Shown: positions 3,453 to 27,066 of the stretch, piece after piece
How the letters are laid out: the number at the start of each line of letters is the position of its first letter
Position numbering within the stretch: the stretch's first letter is position 1
NCBI RefSeq assembly: GCF_014396165.1
Contig: NZ_CP060715.1
Coordinates: 2,100,001 to 2,132,000 of the forward strand
Reading direction: 5' to 3'
From: Erysipelothrix inopinata
GTDB lineage: Bacteria; Bacillota_I; Bacilli_A; Erysipelotrichales; Erysipelotrichaceae
DNA length: 32,000 nt
Notes under the pieces: generated by a model
Told to the model about the DNA's origin: nothing
Seen by the model: the letters and a program-made list of their open reading frames with translations, nothing else
Database searches by the model: none
Made by a program: the position numbers and the translations under genes

Positions 3453-3529
3453 GACTTCACCATCCTTAATTCATTCTTATTTTATACTGTTTAGGCCCTA
3501 AACACAACCTAAAGATTGTAACTTTTAAA

Positions 3530-3755
3530 AGACCCAGAAGGGTGATATATTGTCCCTGTTTCTTACAGGTGGGTATCCTGTTCACTAATTTCTGGGATTC
3601 TGATATAAATACCAGTATTCACACTGTTAGTGGTACGTCCGGATTCCCTTATATCAAAGTGTCGGAAAAATATTTAGACCTTCTAGGTACTACTATTATA
3701 TCACACTTTTTTGTCTTTCGTGATATACTATATAAGAAAAATAACGAGGTGACGT
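3530..3755 (+). promoter_or_regulatory. possible T-box-like leader of proS (uncertain)
   Basis: The gap upstream of proS is 303 nt and non-coding. It has a Stem-I-like hairpin, CCCAGAA (3533-3539) paired with TTCTGGG (3590-3596), with a CCU Pro triplet at 3577-3579 on its 3' side. A motif UUAGUGGUACGUCCGG (3627-3642) resembles the T-box core AAUUAGGGUGGUACCGCG, including UGGU. No canonical terminator or Stem III was found. Confidence 0.35.
3695..3703 (-). promoter_or_regulatory. candidate extended -10 promoter (TGATATAAT) pointing toward yneF
   Basis: The minus strand reads TGATATAAT, an exact TGnTATAAT. The -35 is weak (TCACGA at 3718-3723). The transcription start would fall near 3688, about 236 nt upstream of the yneF ATG. 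Confidence 0.4.
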
Positions 3756-5444: not shown

Positions 5445-5451
5445 TATTAAG

Positions 5452-5477
5452 AAAACTCCCTTACGGGAGTTTTTTTT
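5452..5477. terminator. bidirectional intrinsic terminator between convergent proS and the 5'-nucleotidase gene
   Basis: AAAACTCCC-TTAC-GGGAGTTTT with a T run on the plus strand and an A run on the other side. Confidence 0.7.
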
Positions 5478-7566: not shown

Positions 7567-7586
7567 TTGTATTTCCTCCTATTCTC

Positions 7587-7615
7587 AAGATACACTGTAA
7601 ACGCTTTCAAATCAA
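7587..7615 (-). promoter_or_regulatory. candidate sigma-A promoter of the 5'-nucleotidase gene
   Basis: Minus strand reads TTGATT (7615-7610), a 17-nt spacer, then TATCTT (7592-7587). It lies about 20 nt upstream of the AGGAGG SD. Confidence 0.3.
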
Positions 7616-7752
7616 GTCCTTCTTTAAATGTTTCATAATCTGTCTATTAAAAAAAAAGATAAATGAAGATGGAAAATGTGAAAAATAACACGCCTAACTC
7701 GTTGATATAGTCACTATAATATGTTAATCTAGTTTTAGAAACTAGGTGACAC

Positions 7753-8283
7753 ATGAAAGAACAAGAAATCTGGATAAAAGATCTCGAAAATTTGCATTTG
7801 CCTCGTTTTAACGAACTACCGCAAATACCTTTATATTTAGATCAAGTTATCGAATATACTAACACTCAATTGAATGTTTTATTTCAGTTTGAGGAATCAA
7901 TTTTAACACGGTCAATGGTTAATAATTATGTTAAACACAAGATGATGCCTGCTCCGCAAAAGAAGCGATATCAGCAAGAACATCTCGTCTATATTATTAC
8001 CATTTCGATTCTAAAATCGATATTTAGTATCGGAAACATATCGAGTGGGATTGAGGGAGCATTAAATCAGTACGATATTGATGTTGCCTACGATATGTTT
8101 GTGGAATCCATTGAAGAGAGTTTAAAAATGTTGGTCAATGAATTGTATCAATATGACTTAAAGCTTGAAACAACTGAGCGCATTCGAACCCCACTAAAGG
8201 CAGCAACTCTTGCATTTGCTGCGAAAATTCTTGCCAATTATACATTTAATGCCTATGTGCAAAAGGAGAACACTCATGAGTGA
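7753..8283 (+). CDS. DUF1836 domain protein
   Basis: 176 aa. The blocks LPQIPLYLDQVIEY...LTRSMVNNYVKHKMMPAPQKKRYQQEHLVYII match what I recall for DUF1836. It sits in the usual position immediately upstream of a DegV gene. Confidence 0.75.
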   Translation: MKEQEIWIKDLENLHLPRFNELPQIPLYLDQVIEYTNTQLNVLFQFEESILTRSMVNNYVKHKMMPAPQKKRYQQEHLVYIITISILKSIFSIGNISSGIEGALNQYDIDVAYDMFVESIEESLKMLVNELYQYDLKLETTERIRTPLKAATLAFAAKILANYTFNAYVQKENTHE

Positions 8284-9127
8284 AAAAATAGCTATCGTCG
8301 TTGATTCAGGATCCGATGTAAACAAGAAATTTAAAGATCAATATAATATCAAAAGCTTGCCCCTACGAATCAATATTGAGGGAAAAGAATATATTGATGG
8401 TGTTGATATTGAAATGGCAGAAGTTTTAAGAAGACTTGAAGAAACAAAAGTAACTACTTCCCTTCCTTCCGGTCAAGACATTGTGGATGCTTTAGAAGCA
8501 CTCAAAAACGAGGGATACACTCATGTGATTGTCGTTACGATTTCTTCGGGTTTAAGCGGAACTTACAATGCAATCCGTAATATAAGTAATGATATTGACG
8601 GACTTACAGTATCCGTATTTGATACTAAAAACATCAGCTTGGGTAGTGGTCATCTCGCAATTCGCGCTGCACAAAACGTTGAAAAAGGCATGTCATTTGA
8701 TGACGTTGTTAACGACTTGCATGCGTCAATCAATCAATCAAAAGTATTCTTCACTGTCGGATCTCTTGATTACCTCATTCGTGGTGGACGTATTGGTCAT
8801 GTAGCAGGAACAGTTGCGAACATCTTAAATATTAAACCAATCATCTCATGTAACGAAGAAGGAATTTATCATACTGTAGATAAAGTACGTGGTGAACGAC
8901 GTGTTATTAAGAAAATGATCGAAGCATGTGTTAGCTTTGCAGAGAATGCAAGTACAAGTAAAATTGAATTACTTACGGCTAATCCAGAAACAAACTATGA
9001 TGAATTGAAAATTTCATTAAAGGAAGCAATTCCATCACTCACAGAGATTGGTATCACCGTTATCTCACCCGCACTTGCAATCCATACAGGACCTGAAGTA
9101 CTTGGTATTTCAATTATAATCGACTAA
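8276..9127 (+). CDS. degV: DegV family fatty-acid-binding protein
   Basis: I prefer the ATG at 8276, with SD AAAGGAGA 7 nt upstream, giving MSEKIAIVVDSGSDV. This start overlaps the DUF1836 stop by 8 nt. The track ORF start at 8210 lies inside the upstream gene. Confidence 0.9.
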   Translation: MSEKIAIVVDSGSDVNKKFKDQYNIKSLPLRINIEGKEYIDGVDIEMAEVLRRLEETKVTTSLPSGQDIVDALEALKNEGYTHVIVVTISSGLSGTYNAIRNISNDIDGLTVSVFDTKNISLGSGHLAIRAAQNVEKGMSFDDVVNDLHASINQSKVFFTVGSLDYLIRGGRIGHVAGTVANILNIKPIISCNEEGIYHTVDKVRGERRVIKKMIEACVSFAENASTSKIELLTANPETNYDELKISLKEAIPSLTEIGITVISPALAIHTGPEVLGISIIID

Positions 9128-9136
9128 TTAAAAAAT

Positions 9137-9185
9137 AAAACTGTAACCATAGAGACATCTCAAGAGTCCTTATCGTTACAGTTTT
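9137..9185. terminator. probable bidirectional terminator between degV and ftsK
   Basis: An 11-bp stem, AAAACTGTAAC paired with GTTACAGTTTT, flanked by A and T runs. The loop is unusually large at 27 nt. Confidence 0.45.
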
Positions 9186-9193
9186 TCTTTTAT

Positions 9194-11491
9194 CTAAATT
9201 TCTTCTTCATCTGGTTTAACATAAACATCACGGGGTTTGCTACCATTCGCAGGTCCAATAACCATGTTTGTTTCGAGTGCATCAATGAGGTTTGCAGCTC
9301 GGTTGTAACCAATTTTAAAGCGACGTTGTAATAAAGATGTCGACGCTTTTTGTTCAAGAATTACAAAATCAAACGCTTCCTCATAAAGTGGATCATCATT
9401 TTTACTCACAAAACCATGATTTCCTTCGACACCATTCAATTGAATGAAAGCATCATCGAAGATTGGTTTAGCTTGTGAGCTGGATCGTTCTGTAATTTTC
9501 TTAACTTCTTCATCACTAACATAAACACCTTGAACACGAGTTGCGTTGGGTTCTCCCATTGGGATATAGAGCATGTCTCCATAACCTAATAACTTCTCAG
9601 CACCTTGAGTATCAAGTATTGTTCTTGAATCAATGGCTGATGAAACTGCAAATGCAATTCTTGACGGAATATTAGCCTTAATAATTCCTGTCACAACATC
9701 CACAGAAGGACGTTGTGTCGCAACGATTAAGTGAATACCAGCAGCACGAGCAAGTTGCGTAATTCGTTGAATACTAGTTTCAACTTCTTTACCAGCAACA
9801 GCCATGAGGTCTGCAAGCTCATCGATAATGACTACAATCCAAGGCATCGGTGAAAGTCCCTCTTCTGGGAAAGCTTTGACCTTCTCATTGAAACTTGCGA
9901 TATTTCTAACGCCTGCTTTTGAGAATGCATCATAGCGCGATTCCATTTGTTCAACAACTACTTTTAATGCCCCCGAAGCTTGTACAGGATCTGAAATAAC
10001 AGGTCCCATTAGATGAGGGATATCAGTATAAGGTGTAAATTCAACCTTTTTAGGATCAATCAACAATAACTTTAATTCATCCGGTGTTTTAGTAAGAAGA
10101 ATGGATGTGATAATTGCATTCATACATACTGATTTACCACTACCGGTTGCCCCTGCCACAAGTAAGTGAGGCATTTTATTCAAGGAAACGATAATTGGAT
10201 TCCCCATCAAATCTTTTCCCAATGCAACTTGAACGTTATCTTTATCTTCAAACTTCGTACGGGCTTGAGCAATAACATCACGCATTCTTACTGGCATCAT
10301 TTCTACGTTTGGAATTTCAATTCCAACTGCAGATTTCCCAGGAATTGGTGCTTCAATTCTTAATGTTTTAACTGCAAGTTCCATCATCAAGTTATCTTGA
10401 ATCGAAACAATTTTACTAATTTTCACATTACTATCCGGTTTCAATTCAAACTTAGTGACGGCTGGTCCAATATGGATGTTAACGAGTGTCGCATCAATAC
10501 CAAACTGTTTTAGCACTTCAATAAGGCGTTGGCCTTTTTCTTTTGCTGAAGAATCATTTTGAGCCGATCGTGATGAACCTTTTGTTCCTTCTAATAAAGA
10601 AAGTGATGGCACCTTGTACTTCTCGTAAGTCGTAGGACGTTTATCATCCTTTGGCTTTTCAGGAGCTGGAGCTGATGTTTCTGAAACAATGGTTTCTTCT
10701 TCACCAATCTCATCCGGTTCTAGAAATGCAATCTGACCATTATCCTTAGTAATAGTGTTCTCAGGTAAATCATGATTGACATGTTGATCATCTAGATTTA
10801 AGAATTGTGCTTTTGTTTTTTGTGGTTGGTAATTCTGTTCAATCATCTCATCAACAGAATTAAGATTTTCTTCTTTTTTCTCTGCCTTCTGTTTTTGTTT
10901 TTCTTGTTTATTTTCTTTCATCTTCTCAAATAAAGATTTTGTTTTCTCAGTTTGAGTCGATGCGGTGGATAACATTCTTTGTGGTGTCACAATCAATGCT
11001 AATCCAATCAATCCAAAGACAACTGTAAAGACAATGACGCCTTCACGATCCAGTAGATACGATAACAGTCCGTAAATTAAAGATCCAATAATACCGCCAT
11101 AAGCAGGAACTGTATCATCACTAAATATCTTCGGAATATCTTTAAGATATGCTGTAAAGACATTAAAACCAATGACGTCCGTTTTGAACGTTAGGCTTAG
11201 GATAAGTACCATCGCAATAAAGAGAAGTCCTACTCCAAACCATACTCTAACCGTTTGCTTAAATACCTGAGGTTTAAAGATCAGTAAGCCACAAACGACA
11301 ATAATTAATACATAATAAGGGATGACATATTGCCCCACAAGAACACGTAAAAGGCTATTGATGAAGACCCCTATGATTCCAAATTTAAACCATCCAACAA
11401 GTGAAAAACCAATAATTGCTATCGCTGATATAAAGCGAATGAGCTCTTTTTGTTTTGCTTGTTCTTTTTTAGTATTCCCCTTTTTTGCCAA
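9194..11491 (-). CDS. ftsK: DNA translocase FtsK/SpoIIIE
   Basis: 765 aa. N-terminal multi-TM region and a charged linker, then the motor domain with Walker A (VAGATGSGKS). The C-terminal winged-helix gamma domain reads LLQRRFKIGYNRAANLID. TTG start with a GGAG SD. Confidence 0.9.
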   Translation of the reverse strand: MAKKGNTKKEQAKQKELIRFISAIAIIGFSLVGWFKFGIIGVFINSLLRVLVGQYVIPYYVLIIVVCGLLIFKPQVFKQTVRVWFGVGLLFIAMVLILSLTFKTDVIGFNVFTAYLKDIPKIFSDDTVPAYGGIIGSLIYGLLSYLLDREGVIVFTVVFGLIGLALIVTPQRMLSTASTQTEKTKSLFEKMKENKQEKQKQKAEKKEENLNSVDEMIEQNYQPQKTKAQFLNLDDQHVNHDLPENTITKDNGQIAFLEPDEIGEEETIVSETSAPAPEKPKDDKRPTTYEKYKVPSLSLLEGTKGSSRSAQNDSSAKEKGQRLIEVLKQFGIDATLVNIHIGPAVTKFELKPDSNVKISKIVSIQDNLMMELAVKTLRIEAPIPGKSAVGIEIPNVEMMPVRMRDVIAQARTKFEDKDNVQVALGKDLMGNPIIVSLNKMPHLLVAGATGSGKSVCMNAIITSILLTKTPDELKLLLIDPKKVEFTPYTDIPHLMGPVISDPVQASGALKVVVEQMESRYDAFSKAGVRNIASFNEKVKAFPEEGLSPMPWIVVIIDELADLMAVAGKEVETSIQRITQLARAAGIHLIVATQRPSVDVVTGIIKANIPSRIAFAVSSAIDSRTILDTQGAEKLLGYGDMLYIPMGEPNATRVQGVYVSDEEVKKITERSSSQAKPIFDDAFIQLNGVEGNHGFVSKNDDPLYEEAFDFVILEQKASTSLLQRRFKIGYNRAANLIDALETNMVIGPANGSKPRDVYVKPDEEEI

Positions 11492-11506
11492 TCCCTATCA
11501 CTCCAA

Positions 11507-13165
11507 TCAAACTCTAATTTCAATAATTACAGGTAAAATCATTGGACGTTTTCCTGTTTGTTTATATACAAATTTTGACATTAAGTCACGTGCTTCATTA
11601 CGAGCTGTGATGTTGTCATATTTCTTTTCTTTAACCATTTCCGCAATTTTATTTTCTAAAATATTGCCAACTTCTTTCATCACGTTATCTGCGTCTTTAA
11701 GATAAATAACGCCACGTGATTGAATATCAGGACCACCAATAACTTCTTTAGTTTTATTATTTAAGACGATACCCACAATAATTGCACCATCAGTAGCTAA
11801 TGTTTGACGATCACGTAAAACAAGTCCTGATGTATCTAAATGATCTTTACCATCAATCAGTAAATCTTCGAGTTTCACGATTTCTGATGTAGACTTCAAG
11901 CGTCCATCCACAAACTCTGCAACTTGACCATTATCTAAAATTACGATATTAGCGGCCGAGATTCCCATATCAGTTGCGATATTTGCATTCGCAACAAGGT
12001 TCTGGTACTCACCTTTCACGGGAACATAGTAACGAGGTTTGAAAATTGATATCATCATTTTCAAATCTTCAATTGAAGCATGCATCGATAATACTTCTTT
12101 ATAGTTCATGGTTGTGACACCCACGCCATCTTTAAAGAGTTCATTGACCATAAGCCCTGCTTCCGCTTCCGTACCAGGTACTTCAGGGGATGCAACGATT
12201 ACATGATCGGTTTCTTTAATATCAACGACTTGATCTTCGCCCATAGCAATACGGGTCATTTTTCTGAAGACAGTTGGTCCGACGTCAGAAACGATAATAA
12301 TAACGTTTTTAATATCATTGTTAAATTCTTCAGGTGCTATTTCCAAGTTCTTAGGTAATTTAATGTAGTTTAATTTTTCTAAGTGACGCACTAAACGACG
12401 TTGTTTTTCTCCATAGAAGAAAATGCGACGTTTGAATTTTTGAGCTGTTTCGATTACTTCCATTAAACGATAAATATTTTGTTCATACAAAGTAACAAAT
12501 ACGCGTTCTTCTGTATCTTCAAGCACACGTTCAAGGCGTTTATCAATACGATGGTTTGGGGATGTAAATCCTGTACGTTTCGCACCGACTGATTCTGCAG
12601 TGAGTAAGAAAACACCACGTTTTCCAATCTCTGAAATGCTTGCAATATCACTTTCAAACGATGCATTTTTCACATTGAAATCAATGATGTATTCCGAACC
12701 GTGAACAATATATCCTTGATCAGAACTGATTGCTATCCCAAATGAATCAGGAATGGAATGTGTAACACCAAACGCAACACATTCTCGGCTATTAATTCTA
12801 AAACGTCCATTACGTTTAATTCTAAAAATACTGGTATTGCGAATTTTATTTTCTTTGAAGATATCTTCAATCATTAAAGCGATAAGTGGTGTTGTGTAGA
12901 TGGGTGCATTAACTTCCTTGATTAGGTAAGGAAGAGCTCCCATGACATCATCATGACCATGTGTAATAAAGATCCCTTTAACACGATCAGCACGTTGTTT
13001 TAAGTAACTCATATCAGGAATAACTGTTTCTACTCCTAATTGATCTGTTTGAGGGTATTTTAACCCTGCATCAATAACGTAAATTTCGTCATTGATTTCA
13101 ACTAACGACATATTTTTGCCGTCTTCATCGAGTCCTCCTAATGCGAGAAAACGAATTTTATCCAT
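11507..13165 (-). CDS. rnj: ribonuclease J family protein with degenerate active-site motifs (J2-like)
   Basis: 552 aa. N-terminus IRFLALGGLDEDGKNMSLVEI...VIDAGLKYP, with metallo-beta-lactamase/beta-CASP architecture. Motif 2 reads THGHDDVMG instead of HxHxDH. Confidence 0.85.
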   Translation of the reverse strand: MDKIRFLALGGLDEDGKNMSLVEINDEIYVIDAGLKYPQTDQLGVETVIPDMSYLKQRADRVKGIFITHGHDDVMGALPYLIKEVNAPIYTTPLIALMIEDIFKENKIRNTSIFRIKRNGRFRINSRECVAFGVTHSIPDSFGIAISSDQGYIVHGSEYIIDFNVKNASFESDIASISEIGKRGVFLLTAESVGAKRTGFTSPNHRIDKRLERVLEDTEERVFVTLYEQNIYRLMEVIETAQKFKRRIFFYGEKQRRLVRHLEKLNYIKLPKNLEIAPEEFNNDIKNVIIIVSDVGPTVFRKMTRIAMGEDQVVDIKETDHVIVASPEVPGTEAEAGLMVNELFKDGVGVTTMNYKEVLSMHASIEDLKMMISIFKPRYYVPVKGEYQNLVANANIATDMGISAANIVILDNGQVAEFVDGRLKSTSEIVKLEDLLIDGKDHLDTSGLVLRDRQTLATDGAIIVGIVLNNKTKEVIGGPDIQSRGVIYLKDADNVMKEVGNILENKIAEMVKEKKYDNITARNEARDLMSKFVYKQTGKRPMILPVIIEIRV

Positions 13166-13249: not shown

Positions 13250-13384
13250 ATACGAACACCTAAGCATGATCATTGAGTTTTGTACTCAATATAATAGAGA
13301 AACACTCTGTAATACATTGTATCACAATAATAAGCTCACACATAATTAATTAACCGTCATTTAGGAAAGTTTTATATTAAATGA

Positions 13385-13413
13385 AACACTCTCCATCACT
13401 GATGAAGAGTGTT
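13385..13413 (-). terminator. intrinsic terminator of the adhesin operon
   Basis: Minus strand reads AACACTCT-(13 nt)-AGAGTGTT, starting 3 nt after the stop codon and followed by a T-rich tail (TCATTTAATAT). Confidence 0.55.
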
Positions 13414-13415
13414 CT

Positions 13416-16400
13416 TTAATCTCGTTTTCTTGTCCATTTTGAGAGGAAGTACAAAACAATTCCCATCAGTGACAATTCAAATCCTAGGGATTGAATCCTT
13501 CCTGCAATTCCTGTATTAGGAAGGATATCCTTTGTATTTGAGTGCGGACTCTTATTTGCACCCAGTACATAGGGGTTATTGGGATTTCTTGGATCAAATG
13601 GTGTATTCGAATGATTCGTGTTAGAACCCTCTTTTCCATTGAGCCATTCTTGGTATTCCTCGGGCGTCATTTCACTGACATCAATATCAGAGCGTGTGAA
13701 TTTGTGAGTTACTTGATTTCCTTGGATGTTTCTTTGATAACCTGGCAAGTATGTGAGAACTTCGATTCGATATTCAAAAGGATTGCCACTCTTATCATTA
13801 GTTGGCAAATAAGACCATGTGTAATGGGAGAGCCCCTCTTTCAACCAAATCGGATTGCCAAAGGGTTCTTCATTTTGGAGTAGTTGAATTTCAATATCGG
13901 GTTTCTGTTTAAAATCACCCAACCATTGACTGAAAACTGTGTAATCTTTCAACTTAGGAATGTATGTATTGATTACCAGATTGTTGTAGATACTTGTTTT
14001 AAAGTCAGGATGTTCATTTACTTGGATAACATGATACTCATAGCGATTTCCTTCATAATCTTCTTTAGGAATGTTATGCCATTGATATTGACTCATCTCA
14101 TTCGAAATCTCCACAACATCACCGTAAGGATTATTATTACGCATTAATTGAAGCTTGATCACTGGTTTTGTTTTAGGACTGTTAACCCAAATCAACTTAG
14201 CCTCATAACTTGTTACTTCTTTTCGATAGGTATTAGTAATGATATTTTCATGAACTGATTTTTGATATCCATGAGGTACATTCACTTCATCAACATGATA
14301 GCGGTACTTCTTACCTTGTTCATCTTGTAAAGGTAAATCTTGCCATTGGTACTCTAATATACCAGATTTTAATGTTATAGGTTTTCCGTAAGCAACATCA
14401 TCACGATAAAGTTGAACTTGAATATCCGGTTTAAGTGTGGGTCCGCCCTGCCATTTTTTAATGACTGTGTAGTTTGTTTTTAAGTTTCGAAGTGAGTGTA
14501 CAAAGGTTACATCATGATTACCGCGAGTGATGACTCCCTTTATTACGCGACTGTGCGGTATTGGACTATATGTATCATTTGCTAAAACTTCAACTTGATA
14601 GTTCATTCCTTGAGTCAATCCCAAAATCTCAATAGATTCATAGCTATTAAAGAATACCAATCCTGAATCAGTATCCATTTCTTGGTTAAAATGTGGATTA
14701 CGAATATCTTTCTTAACATAAGATCCTCTGTAAGGCTTACCGTTAATTAAAATTCGATATACGAAGTTATCATTGTTAAAGTAAAACTTTTGATCAGTAT
14801 CACGAAGCTTGTTATGAATGGTTAAACGTGATGATTCAACATAAAAACCACCATTAATTGTGTCTGTCATCGTTTCTTCATCAAGATTAATGCGTTCTGA
14901 GATTCCCGCATGATCGATAGTTGATCCATTCACATCAATGTTTTTATCCGTAACATGATATCCGTCAGGAACTTCAAAAACAACCCTGTAAGCTCCCTTT
15001 GTGTACACTGGAAGTGTATACTTCCCTAGAGAATCCGTTTGAGTTTCATACACGTTGCCCCATGGATCCAAGGTCGGGTTAAGTTCTTCATCAACTAACT
15101 TTACATTGAGATTAGATAAAGGAACATCATTGGTATCAAAAACACCATTACGATTCGTATCCTCGAAAGCCAACCCATTGACACTGTATTTTACGTAACG
15201 AACTTCAGATATGTTTGATTCAAAGAAATCTAAAGTAGGGGTTGTCGCAATCGCATAAGAGCTTAATGCCCGTGAGCCTTCATCATAATCACCAATGGTA
15301 CGTAGTTTGATTTCAAAATCGATATTCGTGACTTTTCCAAGTGACGCCGAATCTTTTAATTCAATTTTGATTGCCGTTGCCTGTGTGTAATCATCAAGAC
15401 TTTGTTGCCAGTGAGCCTCTCTAACAAAATCACTTTCATCTTGGGTGTAAGCATCTTGGGTATACGATACAGTAAATCCGTCAGGAACACTTACGGGTTC
15501 TGCGAGCCGAAGTGTCATTTCTGAGTAAAAGGTATTTGGATCTAAATTACGATCAATCATGGCTTCGTTCACACTCAATTGACCTTCGGTTGGAAATACT
15601 TTTAGAAGAGTAAATGTATCAATCGGGTCTTCTGAATTATTAAATACTGAAAGAAGATATGAAATGTCTTGGTCTTGCTCGGTTCGTGCTTCTCCTGGCG
15701 GAAGCAGATGATGTTGGTCAAGATTCCCACGAACTCTTTGCGTAAGAATGACTTCTCGCGTCGCTATATAACGAATCGTTCGGCGACTGCTTGAAATTTG
15801 TGCTTCTTGATTTAAGTTGAGTTTGTAGATATCGTCAGTTACATTCATATTATTGCTGTTTGACTGATAGGGTTTAATGACATCACTATTCGTCCAGGTC
15901 AGATACGATTCGTTTTCATTATCACCCATAGCCGTCATTTTTCCAATTTGAAGTTGATACGTAACTTCAGAAAATGTAGAAAGAGATGTTGACAAGAGTC
16001 CCGTATGTTCAACAGTTTCCAAGTTCCAAACTAATGCGGTTTTACCACTGTTTTTATAGTTAGGAATAACTGTGGGTTCTGATTTAACCTTACCGTTACT
16101 TTTTACTATATTAAAGAATTTCACACTTCCTGAGCCTTCTACATAGCTCATACCTTGTGGAATAAAATCCACGACAGTTAAATTATCGAGAGTCTGCTTA
16201 TTGTCTAACATGGTTCCTCGAATTTTCAACTTATAGGATACAGTATCATTCAGAAAATAACTAATTTGTGGCATATCAATTTCTTTTTGAATTCCAACTG
16301 ATGGATCAACCTTCATAATCGTTAAGGTATCGCTACTACTTTTGGATACCATTTGTCCATTTTGGAGTCTTCCAGTAACAGCAGCATAGTTATGAAGTGA

Positions 16401-17228
16401 ACGACGTGACTCATGTTGGGATAAAATGTTTGATGCCGTATCTCTGAAGTCAGTGAGAACATAAAATTCTATATTTTTACCACCTTCAAGAAAACTGCCT
16501 TCTGTAAAACTAATTTCTATCGAATCAATATCATCATTCTGAAATGATACAGTTTCTTTTCCTGTCGGATACCAATTAGACTTCACACGAGTTTTTCTTT
16601 GGTCTTTAGAGATGACATCAATATTAAAACTACCAATAAATCCATTCAATGAATTACTATCAAACTGAAGACCCGTATATTTTAAATGACTATCGAGATT
16701 GTAATCACGAATAATGACATCGCGTAAACGGTTGTTTGGGGTAGGCTGGGCACTGTTATTCAGTCGGATACGCCATTGCCCTACTTTTTCCTTTGACTGC
16801 GTAGCATCAAAGTATGTGCCTGCTCCATACTTATAAAAACTAATCGGATCTTGTACTGCTGGAATATCCGCCTTTAATCGAAAGGTTGACGGTGTTTCCC
16901 AAACAAGTGGCGCCTCATTCATACCTCTGTCTTTTTGGTAAGCTGTAATTTTCAAACTTCCTTCTATCGTTGAATCAATTTTTCCGTTGGGAAACTTAAG
17001 ATTTAGAGGTTCTGTACTCGATTTTGACTTAGAACCCATAACAATCGGAGATTGAGGTTCATCAACATAGGTAACAGTTCGTTTCTTTTCATCATAGCTC
17101 CAATTTTTATTAGCTTCTTGGCTAAAGAATGCTCCATCAGGTAATTGATATTCAATCACAATTTTTTCAAACTCCCGATTTCCCCAAGTATTTGATACAT
17201 TGGGTGAAAGTTGGTAGGCAAACTTCAC
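13416..17228 (-). CDS. LPXTG cell-wall-anchored adhesin, C-terminal 1270-codon fragment (no signal peptide of its own)
   Basis: C-terminal sorting signal: LPNTG (13509-13523), a hydrophobic stretch, then KWTRKRD. It has three Cna-B-type repeats, an SdrD-B-like block (NGLAFEDTNRNGVFDTNDVPL...TDSLGKYTL) and a DUF11-like block (LTVVDFIPQGMSYVEGSG). The track start is a GTG, and the frame is actually open upstream to 17294. Confidence 0.85.
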   Translation of the reverse strand: MKFAYQLSPNVSNTWGNREFEKIVIEYQLPDGAFFSQEANKNWSYDEKKRTVTYVDEPQSPIVMGSKSKSSTEPLNLKFPNGKIDSTIEGSLKITAYQKDRGMNEAPLVWETPSTFRLKADIPAVQDPISFYKYGAGTYFDATQSKEKVGQWRIRLNNSAQPTPNNRLRDVIIRDYNLDSHLKYTGLQFDSNSLNGFIGSFNIDVISKDQRKTRVKSNWYPTGKETVSFQNDDIDSIEISFTEGSFLEGGKNIEFYVLTDFRDTASNILSQHESRRSLHNYAAVTGRLQNGQMVSKSSSDTLTIMKVDPSVGIQKEIDMPQISYFLNDTVSYKLKIRGTMLDNKQTLDNLTVVDFIPQGMSYVEGSGSVKFFNIVKSNGKVKSEPTVIPNYKNSGKTALVWNLETVEHTGLLSTSLSTFSEVTYQLQIGKMTAMGDNENESYLTWTNSDVIKPYQSNSNNMNVTDDIYKLNLNQEAQISSSRRTIRYIATREVILTQRVRGNLDQHHLLPPGEARTEQDQDISYLLSVFNNSEDPIDTFTLLKVFPTEGQLSVNEAMIDRNLDPNTFYSEMTLRLAEPVSVPDGFTVSYTQDAYTQDESDFVREAHWQQSLDDYTQATAIKIELKDSASLGKVTNIDFEIKLRTIGDYDEGSRALSSYAIATTPTLDFFESNISEVRYVKYSVNGLAFEDTNRNGVFDTNDVPLSNLNVKLVDEELNPTLDPWGNVYETQTDSLGKYTLPVYTKGAYRVVFEVPDGYHVTDKNIDVNGSTIDHAGISERINLDEETMTDTINGGFYVESSRLTIHNKLRDTDQKFYFNNDNFVYRILINGKPYRGSYVKKDIRNPHFNQEMDTDSGLVFFNSYESIEILGLTQGMNYQVEVLANDTYSPIPHSRVIKGVITRGNHDVTFVHSLRNLKTNYTVIKKWQGGPTLKPDIQVQLYRDDVAYGKPITLKSGILEYQWQDLPLQDEQGKKYRYHVDEVNVPHGYQKSVHENIITNTYRKEVTSYEAKLIWVNSPKTKPVIKLQLMRNNNPYGDVVEISNEMSQYQWHNIPKEDYEGNRYEYHVIQVNEHPDFKTSIYNNLVINTYIPKLKDYTVFSQWLGDFKQKPDIEIQLLQNEEPFGNPIWLKEGLSHYTWSYLPTNDKSGNPFEYRIEVLTYLPGYQRNIQGNQVTHKFTRSDIDVSEMTPEEYQEWLNGKEGSNTNHSNTPFDPRNPNNPYVLGANKSPHSNTKDILPNTGIAGRIQSLGFELSLMGIVLYFLSKWTRKRD
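13689..14474 (-). repeat. three tandem ~87-aa Cna-B-type domain repeats inside the adhesin (protein-level repeats, diverged at DNA level)
   Basis: Repeat 1 is NYTVIKKWQGGPTLKPDIQVQLYRDD...YRYHVDEVNVPHGYQ. Repeat 2 is SYEAKLIWVNSPKTKPVIKLQLMRNN...YEYHVIQVNEHPDFK. Repeat 3 is DYTVFSQWLGDFKQKPDIEIQLLQNE...FEYRIEVLTYLPGYQ. Confidence 0.7.
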
Positions 17229-17242
17229 AAAACTAAGCTCAT

Positions 17243-18283
17243 TTAAATCAAGACTAAGGTAACCTGGGTTAGATTTACTTTCAATCCCCCGACACTATCC
17301 CGACCATTAAGATTATTATTGATTCGACTTGTAAGGTTGAGTGATTGAGTTTGTAGTGTAATTGTTTCTGTTGTTTCAGCTAAGATGCTTTGATCTGCAT
17401 CATTTTTAAGGGTAGCTTCAATGTTTAACGAATGCTTGTCAGGAGTTTTTCCATTTAACATTTTAAATTTGAACGGTAAGTCCATAGAAACACCGGACGC
17501 TACTGGAAAGTTCCAATATCGTATTATTACAAATTCTTCTTCAATACGTACCTTTTTTTCATGCTCACTGTTCATATCTGAAATAACAAGAGATTCCACA
17601 TCTAAATAAGTTTTTGGAATTTTTATCTCAAGTGTTGCATGATTCATGGTTCCACTATCGCGTCCCAAAGACATGCCCACATACATAAGAATTTCTTCCC
17701 CAGAATAATAAGTATCTTTAGAAGCTTCAGGTTTAAGAGTAAAACGCGAAATCTTCACGGGTAAGTCTAAGTGTGTTTCATCTTGATCATCAAGAGTTGG
17801 AAGTGAAATGCGAAAAGGTTCAAACTCTTTGGAGATTGAACTCAAATCTAAAATTAAATTATCTTGATCTAAGAACTCGTCACTGAGGTGTGCACTCAGT
17901 AATATTGTTCCAGATGTTATTTTTTCCTTTAAATTTAAAGAAACACTAAGCTTATTTTCAACTAGCTGAACACCTGAATCCGATTCCTTAAGTTTTACGT
18001 TAATTAATGACTTAGGTAACGCGACTTCATAGTATGAATCGGATTCGATGGCTTTAGAAGTATCGTCATCTAAGTTCCATTTAAGTTCTATTTCTAAGTG
18101 TGCATCCTTATGGTCATCTTCAACCACATCAATTTTATACTCTTTAAATAAAGAACGCTGTAAGTCATTAATGTCTTGAGTACTATTTTTATTTTCATCT
18201 GCATAAACACTGATATTTGCTGTGAAAAGTGCCACAATTAGCGTGAAAATAAGCAAACTTCTGCTCTTTTTAAAATGCTTCAT
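17243..18283 (-). CDS. N-terminal fragment of the same adhesin (signal peptide plus ~300 aa)
   Basis: I prefer the ATG at 18283, with SD GAAGGGGA upstream, giving MKHFKKSRSLLIFTLIVALFTANISVYADE, a typical signal peptide. The track start at 18358 would overlap the sigma gene. The fragment ends in a short out-of-frame tail (LKVNLTQVTLVLI*). Confidence 0.75.
   Translation of the reverse strand: MKHFKKSRSLLIFTLIVALFTANISVYADENKNSTQDINDLQRSLFKEYKIDVVEDDHKDAHLEIELKWNLDDDTSKAIESDSYYEVALPKSLINVKLKESDSGVQLVENKLSVSLNLKEKITSGTILLSAHLSDEFLDQDNLILDLSSISKEFEPFRISLPTLDDQDETHLDLPVKISRFTLKPEASKDTYYSGEEILMYVGMSLGRDSGTMNHATLEIKIPKTYLDVESLVISDMNSEHEKKVRIEEEFVIIRYWNFPVASGVSMDLPFKFKMLNGKTPDKHSLNIEATLKNDADQSILAETTETITLQTQSLNLTSRINNNLNGRDSVGGLKVNLTQVTLVLI
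17286..17290 (-). other. G5 (C5 on plus strand) homopolymer at the junction of the two adhesin reading frames
   Basis: The two frames are both open only across 17243-17294. The G5 run is the only homopolymer there, and adding one G fuses the frames (...NGRDSVGG-IESKSNPGYLSLDLNELSFVKFAYQL...). Confidence 0.6.
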
Positions 18284-18299
18284 AGTCATCCCCTTCATC

Positions 18300-19931
18300 T
18301 CATTGATCCCAGTGTATTGCATCGTTACCCAAATAGTTTTTAAGGTTGAAGGATGCATCTTTAGAAACTGCTGATGTTACATCGAGATTATCACTTGATT
18401 CGATTGGAATCTTAACAAGTATCCCTAAGTAAACTGGTATCGTATTTGCGTCAATTTGATATTCCACATAACCATATCGATATTTTGAATCTGTACCAAT
18501 ATGAGTTGTCATTTTTCGATAAGTACTTCCTGCATCAAAAGTAAGTAAATTCCCTTCAACATCACGTTGATTTTGATTTAGATACATCTCTAATATGCTT
18601 GTGTCGGACAAGTAAGCATCTACAAAATTTTTAACATCTTTAACATATGAAATATCACCACTCGGCTTCGATGATGTGACTTGATTATTTTCTTTTAAAT
18701 TTGAAACAGTATAATCCCATGTTTTTTTCTTCAGTACATAATTTTCATGTGCTGGAGCTTGAGCCTCAAAGGAAATCGTTTCGTTATTTTTTAGTTTTGT
18801 ATTTTTATTTGAATTTATTTTAATTGATTGTAAATATTGATTTAAACCAACATCTTGAGTTGGTTTAAGGGCAAGCGCCAATACCGCATTACCACTCGTT
18901 CCAGTAATACGAATGTCTAGGTATTCGATAAGGTTAACTTCTGATTGTGTCATTAAAGTAACCGGCTCATCGGGGGAATGATGAGTTATCGTTGAATTAT
19001 TCGTAGTACTGGGGAGCGATTGATCGTCATACACTTCCTGGTTATCTGAAAGTGTATTCTCGTATGACGTTTTTGTATCGATATAAGGCAATGAGAATGG
19101 ATCATCTTGCGGCATTATCATATTCATAAACAATGTTAAGGAACAAGCAGTGACAACAAATGTCTGAACTGTCTGACTGAATTGATTTGAATTGTGCTTA
19201 AGAATTAAATTATCAGTCGCACCAGACATCGCGCCATTCAAACTCTGAGTTATGTTTTGAAAGACCATACCTGAATCAAAGGGAATTATGTTTGGAGAAG
19301 CCTTCATACCTGCTATGAAGAACACAAGTGGATTGAATCCATAGAGATGGAAGCCATCGCCTTCTGCTGCTTCTAAAAGGTGCTTAATCTTTTCTTTAGC
19401 ATACCGTAATCGGCTTTTAATTGAGTTCTCACTTACATTTAAAGATTCAGCTATTTCACGTGTCGTCATATCCTCAAAATAGAACATCATCACACATAAA
19501 CGTTGGTCTTCAGGAATTTGAAATAATACTTCTTGAATTACATTGGTAACTTCTTGGTTTCCAGCAAAAATATCAGGTCGATCAAAAGTATGAGTGTCTT
19601 TAACTTCATATGTATAATCTTGATCGGATTCTTTAACAAGATCTGTAAACAGGTTCGGTTTTTTCTTCTTTAAGAAATCCTTTGCTTTATTAGAAGCAAT
19701 ACGATTCACCCATGCTTGGAAATTATCGAGATCATCGAGTTGATCAATATTTTCAAACGCACTGATATAAGTATCTTGGACAAGGTCTTGTACAGTATGG
19801 TGATTACGTACGAGTCTCGAAATAATATAAAATACCATTTTGTGTGTTTCATTATAAAGTTCTTCAAAGTCTTTTGGTCTATCAGATTTAATACTCTTTG
19901 CATCCTTGGAAACTGACATTCTTATCCCCAT
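18300..19931 (-). CDS. ECF-type sigma-70 family factor fused to a transmembrane segment and a C-terminal extracytoplasmic domain of unknown family
   Basis: 543 aa. Region 2 reads DLVQDTYISAFENI...FQAWVNRIASNKAKDFL. The region 4 HTH reads EDMTTREIAESLNVSENSIKSRLRYAKEKI. There is no region 3. A hydrophobic helix TVQTFVVTACSLTLFMNMIM covers aa ~254-273, followed by ~270 Asn/Ser/Thr-rich residues. Confidence 0.8.
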   Translation of the reverse strand: MGIRMSVSKDAKSIKSDRPKDFEELYNETHKMVFYIISRLVRNHHTVQDLVQDTYISAFENIDQLDDLDNFQAWVNRIASNKAKDFLKKKKPNLFTDLVKESDQDYTYEVKDTHTFDRPDIFAGNQEVTNVIQEVLFQIPEDQRLCVMMFYFEDMTTREIAESLNVSENSIKSRLRYAKEKIKHLLEAAEGDGFHLYGFNPLVFFIAGMKASPNIIPFDSGMVFQNITQSLNGAMSGATDNLILKHNSNQFSQTVQTFVVTACSLTLFMNMIMPQDDPFSLPYIDTKTSYENTLSDNQEVYDDQSLPSTTNNSTITHHSPDEPVTLMTQSEVNLIEYLDIRITGTSGNAVLALALKPTQDVGLNQYLQSIKINSNKNTKLKNNETISFEAQAPAHENYVLKKKTWDYTVSNLKENNQVTSSKPSGDISYVKDVKNFVDAYLSDTSILEMYLNQNQRDVEGNLLTFDAGSTYRKMTTHIGTDSKYRYGYVEYQIDANTIPVYLGILVKIPIESSDNLDVTSAVSKDASFNLKNYLGNDAIHWDQ

Positions 19932-19933
19932 TC

Positions 19934-20077
19934 CTAATTTCCACCGTTATCCGGTTCTAACATTCTTTCAAGGGCCGCTAATATTTCTATCCACATTTGT
20001 TGGCGATAATCATCACTGACTTGGAATTCAGCAAGATCCTCTAACAATAATGCTTTAATTGCATCGTCATTCATCAT
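19934..20077 (-). CDS. 47-aa acidic hypothetical protein, first gene of the sigma/adhesin operon
   Basis: Too short for the ORF track. My translation is MMNDDAIKALLLEDLAEFQVSDDYRQQMWIEILAALERMLEPDNGGN*. A perfect AGGAGG SD sits 2-5 nt upstream of the tandem ATGs. The TAG stop lies 2 nt before the sigma-gene ATG. Confidence 0.45.
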   Translation of the reverse strand: MMNDDAIKALLLEDLAEFQVSDDYRQQMWIEILAALERMLEPDNGGN

Positions 20078-20232
20078 GGCCTCCTATCGATACACTAATA
20101 TAACGATTGGAGTTTGCAAATAGTTTTAAAAATAGTCAAAATATTTAAAATAATTACAAAATAATAACATTTAACCCTAATAGTTATTAAAATAGCATAT
20201 TTCACCTAAGGAAACACGCTTTTTGCTTGTAT

Positions 20233-20257
20233 AAAAAAAACGGTACCGAAGTACCGT
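20233..20257 (-). terminator. intrinsic terminator, probably the original rny-ymdB terminator displaced by the IS
   Basis: Minus strand reads ACGGTAC-TTCG-GTACCGT followed by T8. It lies 6 nt from the left end of the IS. Confidence 0.7.
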
Positions 20258-20263
20258 TGGCAC

Positions 20264-20284
20264 TGACCTAGTTTAGTGGGACAC
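20264..20284 (+). repeat. IS left inverted repeat
   Basis: TGACCTAGTTTAGTGGGACAC. Confidence 0.8.
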
Positions 20285-20361
20285 AATAAAAAAAGAAGCA
20301 CCTTGTATTCGTACAATCGTTGTTAGACAATGACAAGTACAATAGGAGGTGCTTTTATATT

Positions 20362-20682
20362 ATGGCTAAGAAAAACAATTATTACCCTCTAGAGGTTAAA
20401 CTAGAAGCAATCAAGCTCAAAGAAGAGGGATACAGCGTAAAAGAAATTCAGGTGATGTTAGATATTAAAAGTGAATCGCAAGTATACACTTGGTACTACT
20501 GGTATCGTGATGGTGAAATTGAGAGATTGTCACAGTCACCTGGACAACAATATAGTTATGGTCATGGACCAACTGACAGGTCGAAAGAAGAAAGTTTAGA
20601 AATTAAAAACAAAATATTGGAGAATCAAATAAAGATATTAAAAAAGTACAAAGAGAAGGAAAGGAAGTGGTACCACAAATAA
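20362..20682 (+). CDS. IS3-family transposase OrfA (HTH)
   Basis: ATG at 20362 with AGGAGG upstream, giving MAKKNNYYPLEVKLEAIKLKEEGYSVKEIQ... A leucine-zipper-like C-terminus follows. The track start at 20320 is a TTG inside the IS leader. Confidence 0.85.
   Translation: MAKKNNYYPLEVKLEAIKLKEEGYSVKEIQVMLDIKSESQVYTWYYWYRDGEIERLSQSPGQQYSYGHGPTDRSKEESLEIKNKILENQIKILKKYKEKERKWYHK
20640..20646 (+). other. programmed -1 ribosomal frameshift site A AAA AAG
   Basis: The heptamer is in the correct phase with orfA (TTA AAA AAG). Reading in the -1 frame gives KKVQREGKEVVPQIIIE..., continuous with orfB. Confidence 0.75.
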
Positions 20683-21524
20683 TCATTGAGATTGTAAATG
20701 AATTCAAGGATTTGATGCCAATTAAGTTAATTCTAGAGTTATTTGATATTCCTCGATCAACATACTACAGATGGAAAAACAAAATAGAAGTAAATGAAAT
20801 TTCTTATAATGAGAGAATAGTAATATCAAAATGCAAAGAAACGAATTATGAATATGGTTATCGTACAATAAAAGGAATACTTAAAGACGAAGGAAACCAT
20901 TTAAATAAAAATACTGTTCAGAGAATTATGCAAAAATTCAATCTACAATGTAGGGTTAAACCTAAGAAAGTTAAACACGTTAAAGGAAAAGAATCGATTG
21001 TTGCCAGTAATATAATTGATCGTGACTTTACCGCAAATCGTCCATTAGAGAAACTGTCAACGGATATTACATATCTTCCATGGGGAGAAAAAACATTATA
21101 TTTATCTACTATTATGGATCTTTATAATGGCGAAATTATTGCTTTTTCGTTGGACGATACACAGGATACAAATTTTGTGCTGGATACCTTAAATCAACTT
21201 CCTGAAATAAAGCATAGGTGTATACTTCACTCGGATCAAGGAACCGTGTATACATCAAAAATCTATCAGGAAACAGTATATAAAAAGAGCATTACCATGA
21301 GTATGTCCCGAAAAGGCACACCTGCAGATAACGCTCCAATCGAATCGTTTCATTCCACCTTAAAGTCTGAAACGTTCTATCGATATCCAGAACTGAAAAG
21401 TTCCAATGAAATTATATCACAAACTGTGATAAACTTTATTAAACATTATAACAACACACGAGTACAAGCAAAACTGGAATTTAAATCCCCGGTAAAGTAT
21501 CGAGAATCTAGAATCCTAGGTTAA
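20667..21524 (+). CDS. IS3-family transposase OrfB (DDE catalytic domain; expressed as an OrfAB fusion, 20362..21524)
   Basis: Blocks LSTDITYLPW...YLSTIMDLYNGEIIAFSL, HSDQGTVYTS and ADNAPIESFHSTLKSE give the D, D, E spacing typical of the IS3 family. Confidence 0.85.
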   Translation: MVPQIIIEIVNEFKDLMPIKLILELFDIPRSTYYRWKNKIEVNEISYNERIVISKCKETNYEYGYRTIKGILKDEGNHLNKNTVQRIMQKFNLQCRVKPKKVKHVKGKESIVASNIIDRDFTANRPLEKLSTDITYLPWGEKTLYLSTIMDLYNGEIIAFSLDDTQDTNFVLDTLNQLPEIKHRCILHSDQGTVYTSKIYQETVYKKSITMSMSRKGTPADNAPIESFHSTLKSETFYRYPELKSSNEIISQTVINFIKHYNNTRVQAKLEFKSPVKYRESRILG

Positions 21525-21536
21525 TTTTTTTTATGA

Positions 21537-21557
21537 GTGTCTCACAAAACTAGGTCA
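21537..21557 (-). repeat. IS right inverted repeat
   Basis: The reverse complement reads TGACCTAGTTTTGTGAGACAC, matching the left repeat at 19 of 21 positions. Confidence 0.8.
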
Positions 21558-21564
21558 CTTCCGT

Positions 21565-26715: not shown

Positions 26716-27066
26716 TGCATTAACACTCAATAAGCCATGTCCTGTCGTGATAATCATTTATCTGTGAAATATATATTTCACCCTGCTTAATCTTGAATTC
26801 GATCTTGCAAGCTCCCCTACCAATTTTGGGTTTCTCGCTTATGGGGTTTACCTCGTTCCACTTTCACTCTTTCGAATGAAACTTCGTCACTGTGGCACTT
26901 TTATAGTCTCGATCCATAGTTTCCCTTAGGATGTTGATCCGCCGTTATAGATGCCTCTATACCTTGGCTTATTTTTTCACCAAGCACAAACACTACAACC
27001 ATCTCAGATTGTGCGAGCATGGACTTTCCTCTACATTTACATGCAGCGATTATCTTTCGTGTTATT
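26716..27066 (-). ncRNA. rnpB: RNase P RNA (bacterial, Bacillus/type B-like)
   Basis: The minus strand contains the universal blocks GAGGAAAGTCCATGCTCGCAC, AGTGCCACAGTGACGAAG, GTGGAACGAGGTAAACCCC, AGCGAGAAACCCAAA and ACAGGACATGGCTTA, in the same order as B. subtilis rnpB. The P1 helix pairs TAACAC (27064-27059) with GTGTTA (26726-26721). Ends are approximate to about 5 nt. Confidence 0.85.

Follow-up and report, generated by a model that had tools for sequence, protein, structure and literature searches.

A three-gene cassette of Erysipelothrix inopinata encoding a small acidic protein, a putative membrane-tethered ECF sigma factor and an LPNTG surface protein

Results

A minus-strand cassette of three closely spaced genes

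The window analysed here, a stretch of 32,000 nucleotides (nt) from Erysipelothrix inopinata (contig NZ_CP060715.1, positions 2,100,001 to 2,132,000 of the forward strand), contains a minus-strand cassette of approximately 6.9 kb, in which a small open reading frame (ORF), a sigma factor fusion gene and a surface protein gene follow one another in this order. Unless another locus is named, positions are those of the window, and all features of the cassette are located on the minus strand. Specifically, the ORF list places a small acidic ORF of 47 amino acids (aa) at 19934-20077. It is followed at 18300-19931 by the gene of a 543-aa protein in which an extracytoplasmic function (ECF) sigma core, a transmembrane (TM) segment and an ectodomain are fused, as judged from Pfam, NCBIfam, the family alignment and an AlphaFold2 (AF2) model searched with Foldseek. 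This protein has 100% identity to one that NCBI assigns to E. inopinata. The third gene, at 13416-18283, is assigned by Pfam and by intact orthologues to an LPNTG surface protein and putative adhesin, which has 1622 aa when a run of six Gs (G6) is read. A hairpin with a 14-bp stem, detected by a hairpin scan, lies directly 3' of the adhesin stop codon (13384-13414) and forms the operon terminator, no internal terminator above chance is present within the operon, and no mobility gene belongs to the cassette.

An earlier sequence-only reading of this DNA had described the small ORF and the sigma-TM-sensor ORF just as they are found here, and had claimed for the unit a downstream terminator of its own, which the hairpin bears out. 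Of the two intergenic gaps that it gave, the 2 nt between the small ORF and the sigma gene are correct, whereas the 17 nt between the sigma gene and the adhesin gene measure 16 nt.

The fusion protein joins an ECF sigma core to a predicted ectodomain

The N-terminal part of the fusion is an ECF sigma core (19380-19859), in which sigma2 (aa 25-91) and sigma4 (aa 132-184) are connected by a disordered linker. Pfam detects Sigma70_r2 (4e-14), Sigma70_r4 (as r4_2, 8e-13) and Sigma70_ECF (25.3 against a cut-off of 21.1), and the sigma70-ECF model TIGR02937 scores 99 bits against a cut-off of 42.9. In line with these assignments, the top PDB matches of the AF2 model by Foldseek are SigL, AlgU, SigW and sigmaE. 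Sigma3 is absent from the fusion, which thus has the make-up of an ECF (group 4) sigma-70 factor.

After sigma4 comes a hydrophobic juxta-sigma motif (aa 197-211, YGFNPLVFFIAGMKA; 19299-19343), which is conserved in the family alignment with the consensus G.KLY.LAP.PF...LL and which AF2 models as a helix at aa 201-211, with a pLDDT (predicted local distance difference test) score of approximately 80. A stretch of low model confidence, a linker of approximately 45 aa, leads from this motif to the single TM segment (aa 255-273, VQTFVVTACSLTLFMNMIM; 19113-19169; Kyte-Doolittle 1.60), which is preceded by K244 and followed by an acidic stretch. From this charge distribution around the TM segment we infer an N-in, C-out topology, in which the fusion would be a type II membrane protein with a cytoplasmic sigma2-sigma4 core.

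The predicted extracellular part begins with an acidic linker of predicted disorder (aa 274-329; 18945-19112; pLDDT 24-39), continues with a beta-module (aa 330-410; 18702-18944; AF2 pLDDT approximately 65-89) that represents an unannotated repeat domain, and ends with a C-terminal alpha+beta domain (aa 426-540; 18312-18656), which by profile search and fold search occurs in the adhesin-linked subfamily only. In an exhaustive profile search, the beta-module is found in 322 protein clusters, with one to six copies in each; many of these clusters also have a zinc ribbon at the N-terminus, and Pfam has no match to any of the copies. The combination of the two domains is confined to just 6 protein clusters in an exhaustive search of the same kind. 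The alpha+beta domain has weak matches to NTF2/VirB8/PsbP-like folds, none of them at E<=1e-3, and the ectodomain model as a whole has no significant match in the PDB. Additionally, a word-index search with the ectodomain alone returns zero matches, and Pfam gives no match anywhere in aa 190-543.

Compared with its counterpart in a related metagenome-assembled genome (L001), the fusion is 95-99% identical in the sigma core and 85-92% identical in the ectodomain/C-terminal part, with 15 synonymous and 5 non-synonymous codon differences in the former and 30 and 28, respectively, in the ectodomain. This faster divergence of the ectodomain fits a cytoplasmic core and a surface-exposed ectodomain. 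Translation of the fusion may start at M5 (19919), as the annotated ATG at 19931 adds MGIR in front of a family-invariant Met; a start at 19919 would widen the gap to the small ORF to 14 nt.

A conserved mini-protein is encoded upstream of the sigma gene

Within the small ORF, the likely start codon is the second ATG at 20074, which is preceded at a distance of 5 nt by AGGAGG and yields a protein of 46 aa (11 D/E, 3 K/R) that is predicted to form two helices. No relative of this protein is found in Pfam, NCBIfam or the PDB. In at least 24 loci of the sigma fusion family described below, a homologous ORF of 38-62 aa reaches up to the sigma start or runs into it. The alignment of these ORFs displays a pattern of two helices, with the hydrophobic spacing of amphipathic helices, a conserved acidic position and one aromatic residue. 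Their charge follows the clade, being acidic in the window, L001, a metagenomic contig (L092) and L021, whereas most clostridial versions carry a Lys-rich tail. A profile made from 23 of these small ORFs finds 24 adjacent matches at E<0.01 and 4 non-adjacent ones among 5667 small ORFs of the same loci, a contrast that is partly circular, because the training ORFs were picked by adjacency, and that is supportive rather than independent. The profile also recovers four adjacent ORFs from outside the training set.

Between the window and L001, the small ORF differs at 2 of 141 nt, both non-synonymous, and dN/dS, with 2 differences only, is uninformative. The ORF is about as highly conserved as the sigma core. 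On these comparisons, the small ORF is taken as a real gene that encodes a conserved mini-protein.

Two loci depart from the simple arrangement. In Globicatella sulfidifaciens (L003), the small ORF (40 aa, profile E 1.4e-5) is located downstream of the sigma gene and is followed by a gene for a 123-aa secreted protein. In L092, an extra hydrophobic ORF of 29 aa (MELITRFIYGVRPLVIFSVALYATLKYKG; 430-520 of that contig) with its own ribosome-binding site (GGGAGGGG) is placed between a weak promoter match and the small ORF.

A single ECF-type promoter precedes the small ORF

The family motif matrix locates an ECF-type operon promoter at 20094-20130 (TTTAAAACTATTTGCAAACTCCAATCGTTATATTAGT), which consists of the -35 element AAAACT, a 16-nt spacer and the -10 element CGTTAT (20105-20100), and which ends 20 nt before the likely start codon of the small ORF. 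Of 50 family loci, about half have the underlying family motif, AAAAC(T/C)-N16-(C/T)GT(C/T), upstream of the small ORF or of the sigma gene. Across many genera it extends to TATAAAAC(T/C)TTTT-N13-(T/C)GTC(T/A)TA.TAGT, with an AAC of the ECF type at -35 and CGT or TGT at -10. Scored with a matrix built without the window and L001 sites, the window promoter reaches 17.3 bits and is the best match in the 32 kb. No second copy precedes the adhesin gene in the window, and the adhesin would therefore owe its expression to the operon, in which its gene is the third. Given one family-conserved ECF-type promoter before the small ORF and none before the adhesin, the genes would form a single self-driven minus-strand transcription unit of approximately 6.7 kb, running from the promoter (20130-20094) through to the terminator (13414-13384), a layout that, taken jointly with the mechanism proposed in the Discussion, we consider probable by a narrow measure. 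The one-operon claim of the sequence-only reading fits this promoter arrangement.

In other members of the family, additional motif copies are located before neighbouring genes, often those of secreted proteins, as in L033 (10286), L034 (3350), L026 (13484), L007 and L011, and in L003 further copies at 9943 and 7434 flank the sigma gene. This distribution of predicted promoters suggests an autoregulated sigma factor with a small local regulon. Of the two copies in L003, one (9943-10164) precedes the gene of a 133-aa lipoprotein and the other (7434-7933) precedes the 40-aa small ORF. A similarity between the Globicatella lipoprotein and the ectodomain was considered; it is not significant (BLAST E 0.35) and was not used for the topology.

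The second-best match in the window, TAGAAAACCTTCAGAAGCACAAATTCGTCAAATCATG (3246-3282, minus strand), has 13.2 bits and is found some 50 nt in front of the gene of a monofunctional transglycosylase (2483-3196). This ECF sigma factor, or a different one, may act there, or the match may be due to chance.

The third gene encodes a sortase-anchored surface protein

After repair of its reading frame, the adhesin comprises a signal peptide (MKHFKKSRSLLIFTLIVALFTANISVYA...), an N-terminal region of approximately 1030 aa, SdrD_B (5.7e-10 in Pfam), DUF7601, three copies of Cna_B (1.7e-28) and an LPNTG sorting signal. The LPNTG motif itself (13509-13523) is followed by a hydrophobic segment and a KWTRKRD tail (...LPNTGIAGRIQSLGFELSLMGIVLYFLSKWTRKRD). 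The signal peptide, the C-terminal sorting signal and the Cna_B/SdrD_B stalk repeats are those of a sortase-anchored protein of the Cna/Sdr type, and the Pfam score for Collagen_bind, 17.5 bits, is below the cut-off of 27.5. Relative to L001, no part of the region evolves faster than the adhesin, which has 81-91% identity as against 91-99% in the core genes.

The sequence-only reading had treated 13416-18283 as one continuous ORF of about 1620 aa. This range spans 4868 nt, which is not a multiple of 3, and in the present assembly it is covered by two ORFs in different frames (17243-18358 and 13416-17228), since a 1-nt deletion in a run of five Gs (G5; 17286-17290) splits the gene into the parts 17243-18283 and 13416-17294. 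Two other, independent assemblies, GCA_965139835.1 (L087) and the Logan assembly of SRR11123319 (L088), encode exactly the same sigma protein as the window and match it over 11,078 and 10,986 nt, respectively, except for one base, which makes the run G6 and the 1622-aa gene intact. L001 carries GTGGGTGGG at this position. The split is most simply explained as a homopolymer error in this assembly.

The three genes recur together at other loci

The trio of small ORF, sigma-TM-ectodomain protein and SdrD_B/Cna_B sortase substrate, which the sequence-only reading had taken for a self-contained cassette, recurs in syntenic order at three other loci, two of which are outside this chromosomal site. 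In L001, the trio occupies the same site as in the window, and its adhesin is 85% identical to that of the window. In E. anatis (L002), it is located between a choline-kinase-like gene and a 2-hydroxyacid dehydrogenase gene, and the 1650-aa protein encoded after the sigma gene is 30% identical to the adhesin over its full length. The third locus, L092, has an acidic ORF of 53 aa, a sigma gene product with 34% identity and a 741-aa SdrD_B/Cna_B protein with LPSAG. At all four loci that carry this ectodomain and have a visible context, the next gene encodes an SdrD_B/Cna_B sortase substrate, after a gap of 2-16 nt; a metagenome profile scan added no further adhesin-linked members.

Sigma-TM-ectodomain fusions form a large family

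A survey of one genome per species yielded at least 494 confirmed relatives of the fusion, of which the 50 best loci were taken for detailed comparison. The ORF is complete in 47 of these 50, with lengths of 409-859 aa throughout, and 45 of the 47 complete relatives have one hydrophobic segment, at aa 237-395. The other two (L028 and L053) have two such segments, the second of which overlies the juxta-sigma motif. Among the 50 best loci, the hosts are nearly all Lachnospiraceae, Oscillospiraceae and other Clostridia, with the addition of E. anatis. Homologues of 350-800 aa retrieved by protein search have the sigma core, the juxta-sigma motif, an Ala/Gly-rich linker and the TM helix in common, and their C-terminal regions are unrelated. 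The TM consensus of the family is Gly-rich, and the linker before it is Ala/Gly-rich in the clostridial members. With its ECF core, G.KLY.LAP.PF motif, single TM segment within aa 240-380, variable ectodomain and small upstream ORF, the window protein shares the features that characterise the family. An artefactual gene fusion is rejected, as the fusion is conserved in more than 45 loci; by this comparison, the sigma-TM fusion is the norm in this clade and no accident. Plasmid and phage collections contain distant sigma factors only.

Downstream of the sigma gene, a Pfam scan of 36 neighbours finds no common cargo family. These wider-family neighbours include BspA-LRR, Big_2, dockerin and amidase proteins and many unannotated secreted proteins. 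The idea that the family always drives LPXTG adhesins is therefore rejected. Outside the Erysipelothrix-like subfamily the neighbours are heterogeneous, so that the adhesin does not stand as the general cargo, and the gene contexts compared here make the adhesin link a property of this subfamily, not of the whole family.

Several members have features of their own. In some clostridial members (P0011 and P0026; alignment columns 5-30), a zinc ribbon (CxxC...CxxC) is located N-terminal to the sigma core, and a similar zinc ribbon heads many non-sigma proteins that have the extracellular beta-module. The 12.5-kb contig L006 carries two paralogous sigma-TM fusions, at 267-2165 (632 aa) and 7523-9172 (549 aa), with divergent promoter copies between them (6968-7070). 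In L005, a family member together with a 62-aa ORF resides at 2108-12525 on an apparent integrative element, which also encodes an HTH_3 repressor on the opposite strand, a NERD protein, ArdC and two integrases. The family can thus apparently travel on mobile DNA.

The cassette is inserted between ymdB and rnj

The cassette is flanked by conserved core genes, rnj and ftsK on one side and ymdB, rny and recA on the other, as had been described from the sequence. In E. rhusiopathiae (L089), Erysipelothrix sp. HDW6C (L090) and E. larvae (L091), ymdB is directly followed by rnj, without the block, across spacers of 144, 117 and 65 nt, respectively, that contain a terminator and the conserved rnj promoter. 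Because three Erysipelothrix species show ymdB adjoining rnj, the three-gene block has, on comparative grounds, been inserted after the terminator of ymdB and ahead of the promoter of rnj, which upholds the proposed insertion into a housekeeping backbone. Judged by the same genomes, the ymdB-rnj insertion is specific to the E. inopinata lineage.

Alignment of the window with L001 produces two blocks, 22500-21561 and 20258-12906. An insertion sequence (IS) of the IS3 family is located at 20259-21562 on the plus strand. It is recognised by orfA (20320-20682, with a helix-turn-helix), an overlapping orfB (20667-21524, with an rve DDE integrase domain), imperfect inverted repeats of 52 nt at its ends and a 3-bp duplication, GTT. 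A hairpin at 20239-20258 (minus strand), found by hairpin scan and L001 comparison, directly follows the ymdB stop codon in L001, whereas in the window the IS separates the two. Because the IS sits between the ymdB stop codon and this hairpin, the latter is the terminator of the ymdB/rny unit and is outside the cassette's own transcription unit. A terminator had been correctly placed here by the sequence-only reading, which took it for the upstream boundary of the cassette. The same holds for the IS3 element, which does abut the block as claimed: it is absent at the L001 site and present in L087, whose contig begins inside it, and comparison of the loci indicates that it inserted later, as a secondary event, behind the ymdB stop codon and ahead of the terminator of ymdB, and that it is not a part of the cassette. 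The IS as vehicle of the cassette is likewise rejected, as L001 carries the cassette without it.

Other surface-protein genes are found nearby in related genomes. In E. rhusiopathiae, a gene for a 1992-aa SpaA/FctA/Cna_B surface protein (L089, 12112-14765) is located directly after ftsK, near the empty ymdB-rnj site, and E. larvae (L091) has a large MucBP/Flg_new protein and a Mga-type regulator upstream of rny. The ymdB-rnj neighbourhood seems to collect surface-protein genes in Erysipelothrix. Additionally, Rfam matches at the gathering score place an rli23-like antisense RNA inside the IS3 transposase gene (21322-21419, minus strand), a 6S RNA at 3527-3692 (minus strand) and an RNase P RNA of class B at 26728-27062 (minus strand) in the window.

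Discussion

A proposed mechanism and its alternatives

We lean, with modest conviction, towards the proposal that the cassette encodes a sigma factor that is tethered to the membrane, probably freed by proteolysis and autoregulated, and that has the adhesin as the cargo of its operon. In such a mechanism, the tethered sigma core would be inactive or poorly active, perhaps being held in addition by the juxta-sigma motif and/or the small protein, which are the candidates for its silencing. An extracellular event on the ectodomain would turn the protein into a substrate for intramembrane (site-2) proteolysis, and the freed sigma core would bind RNA polymerase and read its own promoter. The small protein, the sigma factor and the adhesin would then rise together, resulting in positive feedback. 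Of this picture, the analysis establishes the order and domain make-up of the genes, their synteny elsewhere, their insertion at this site and the conservation of the promoter, whereas the topology, the release by proteolysis, the reading of the promoter by this sigma factor and the function of the adhesin belong to the proposal. A Gly-rich TM segment and an Ala-rich linker in front of it would be compatible with site-2 cleavage and Clp trimming; in RseA, RsiW, RsgI and the substrates of RseP/RasP, such TM and linker features suit site-2 cleavage.

A number of observations weigh against this proposal. AF2 gives no model of the TM helix. Between sigma4 and the TM segment, Pfam finds no recognisable anti-sigma domain (ZAS, RsgI_N, FecR or DUF4179), and no Cys/His motif is present there, as aa 186-254 contain no Cys. 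Neither a protease nor a cleavage site was found, and no protease gene is linked to the cassette. With regard to the promoter, a score of 17.3 bits is reached anywhere by 1 in 60 shuffles, and its weight comes from its position and its near-identity to the L003 and L006 sites; the best match in E. anatis is poor (7.8) and that in L092 is weak (10.6). To these points are added the partial circularity of the small-ORF profile and, for the cargo, the frameshift of the adhesin gene in this assembly, the absence of a reliable domain match in its N-terminal region of approximately 1030 aa, and a label, adhesin, that is taken from the domain type only.

The lack of a canonical anti-sigma domain in the chain bears directly on a different reading, in which the sigma factor works, or is controlled, uncut as a membrane-resident protein like ToxR/CadC-type regulators. 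Its activity would be set by the small protein, acting as an anti-sigma factor or co-factor, or by folding of the juxta-sigma motif onto sigma2/sigma4, and the ectodomain would merely modulate it. Another inhibitor is needed if the chain contains none, and the small ORF accompanies the fusion across the family in conserved form, often with translational coupling between the two. Outside the sigma domains, no part of the protein is more conserved than the motif after sigma4, which is modelled with a pLDDT of approximately 80. We nevertheless regard control without cleavage as rather unlikely, because the small protein matches no known anti-sigma family, its variation in charge between clades (acidic here, lysine-rich in Clostridia) is odd for a conserved interface, and all fused sigma factors studied so far are released by proteolysis (PMC5411451).

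Two further readings concern the adhesin. The gene could be a passenger that is transcribed by read-through or from its own sigma-A-type promoter inside the sigma coding region, with the real regulon, for example envelope-stress genes, located elsewhere. The heterogeneity of the downstream genes in the wider family, which have no common Pfam family, speaks for such an arrangement, as do the restriction of the motif scan to 32 kb of this genome and the sigma-70-like hexamers inside the sigma gene, which occur at chance frequency. Set against these, an SdrD_B/Cna_B substrate is next at all four loci, two of which are outside this site, and in other members the motif stands directly before adjacent secreted-protein genes, so that local cargo appears to be the rule; a passenger is improbable on this evidence. 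The G-run frameshift could also be real and either inactivate the adhesin or switch it, which would make the locus a decaying or phase-variable one. Homopolymer slippage is a known switching mechanism, and the run is G5 here and G6 in two otherwise identical assemblies. However, as no other base differs in 11 kb, the simplest account is an error of assembly or consensus at the homopolymer, a tract of 5-6 nt is short for a contingency locus, and its length differs only between assemblies. The G tract is also not conserved in L001, and the downstream frame is open throughout its 1292 codons. A long conserved tract with length variants, as in phase-variable contingency genes, is not found, and we consider decay or phase variation very improbable.

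Beyond the proposal of a tethered and proteolytically released sigma factor, a more far-reaching picture can be entertained tentatively, and we doubt it more than we credit it. The cassette may be a hitherto undescribed three-part contact-sensing module of Gram-positive bacteria, in which a tethered sigma factor devoid of an anti-sigma domain, a dedicated cytoplasmic mini-protein of approximately 45 aa, encoded by the first gene of the operon and serving as inhibitor or chaperone, and a self-amplifying promoter switch on a specific wall-anchored adhesin, or other surface cargo in other members, when the ectodomain is engaged. If this is true, gut Clostridia and Erysipelotrichia would harbour a new, very widespread signalling family, defined by the mini-protein and the unannotated beta-module.

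The family matters in several respects. For sigma/anti-sigma proteins in one chain, a single Pseudomonas protein has been the object of study and Actinobacteria the source of predictions; the present results point to a much larger family in Firmicutes, with hundreds of matches among species-representative genomes, mostly of gut Lachnospiraceae and Oscillospiraceae, in which the fusion is the rule. Its promoter motif can be used to read the local regulon of each member, and its mini-protein is mostly missed by annotation pipelines. The Erysipelothrix subfamily offers a simple test case, which has a single promoter, sigma factor and cargo adhesin and for which natural relatives with an empty site are at hand. 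From it one could learn what keeps a sigma factor silent that has no anti-sigma domain, and by what route Gram-positive bacteria couple an outside cue to the expression of a surface adhesin.

Comparison with known systems

The sequence-only reading had presented a sensor and a sigma factor in a single chain as an undescribed principle, which is not so. In P. putida, Prc and RseP activate the sigma/anti-sigma hybrid IutY (PMC5411451), and in Actinobacteria fusions are predicted for the groups ECF48, ECF52 and ECF53, with proteolytic activation proposed for them (PMC8999054, PMC5826349). Like the protein described here, IutY combines an ECF sigma factor, one TM segment and an extracytoplasmic domain in one chain and, as is proposed for the present protein, controls an adjacent surface-protein gene. 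IutY belongs to ECF243, is Gram-negative, has a FecR-type periplasmic domain and a TonB-dependent receptor as partner, and is released by site-1 and site-2 cleavage (PMC5411451). In contrast, the present protein is from a Firmicute, has no FecR domain, carries different, unannotated ectodomains and is accompanied by a conserved small ORF and a sortase-substrate cargo, and its proteolysis is putative.

The ECF52, ECF48 and ECF53 proteins, such as SCO4117 of S. coelicolor, resemble the fusion in their long C-terminal extension with TM helices and an extracellular domain and in the proteolysis proposed for them (PMC5826349, PMC8999054). They are distinguished by a zinc-finger (ZAS-like) module, a Pro-rich or carbohydrate-binding ectodomain and their occurrence in Actinobacteria, whereas the protein described here has no HxxxCxxC-type module and no such ectodomains and comes from another phylum.

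SigI/RsgI of Bacilli and Clostridia is the counterpart among Firmicute trans-envelope signalling systems, in which RsgI is a single-pass protein with a disordered extracellular stretch and variable sensors (PMC10556640, PMC9732909). In the proposed mechanism, the likeness would extend to site-2 proteolysis, an autoregulated operon and the control of surface or extracellular proteins, as known for SigI/RsgI. That system differs in consisting of two proteins, in the RsgI_N anti-sigma domain and the autocleaving SEAL domain of RsgI, and in that SigI is not an ECF factor; neither RsgI_N nor SEAL is detected in the window fusion by Pfam or by the fold search of the ectodomain. The closest relatives of the sigma core in sequence and fold are those of SigW/RsiW, SigV/RsiV and sigmaE/RseA, which also share the AAC/CGT-type promoter and have the autoregulation that is proposed here. 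In these systems a single-pass protein of its own, with a class I domain, serves as the anti-sigma factor, whereas here the membrane anchor is fused to the sigma factor. No separate co-transcribed anti-sigma gene is present at the cassette, the small ORF matching no anti-sigma family.

The surface protein resembles the microbial surface components recognizing adhesive matrix molecules (MSCRAMMs) of the Cna/Sdr type, to which RspA and RspB of E. rhusiopathiae belong, in its signal peptide, long N-terminal region, SdrD_B/Cna_B stalk and LPXTG signal, and differs from them in that its N-terminal part is without a reliable match. To our knowledge, such adhesins have not been described with a sigma gene of their own directly upstream. 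In the literature, no description was found of the Firmicutes family, the small ORF or the adhesin link, although an ECF group number may already exist for the sigma core. By its domain content, the cassette can be likened to IutY, to ECF52 and, loosely, to SigI/RsgI, yet it lacks the defining domains of all three. Taken together, the principle of a sigma-TM fusion is known from IutY and ECF52, while the Firmicutes family, its small partner and its link to an adhesin look undescribed.

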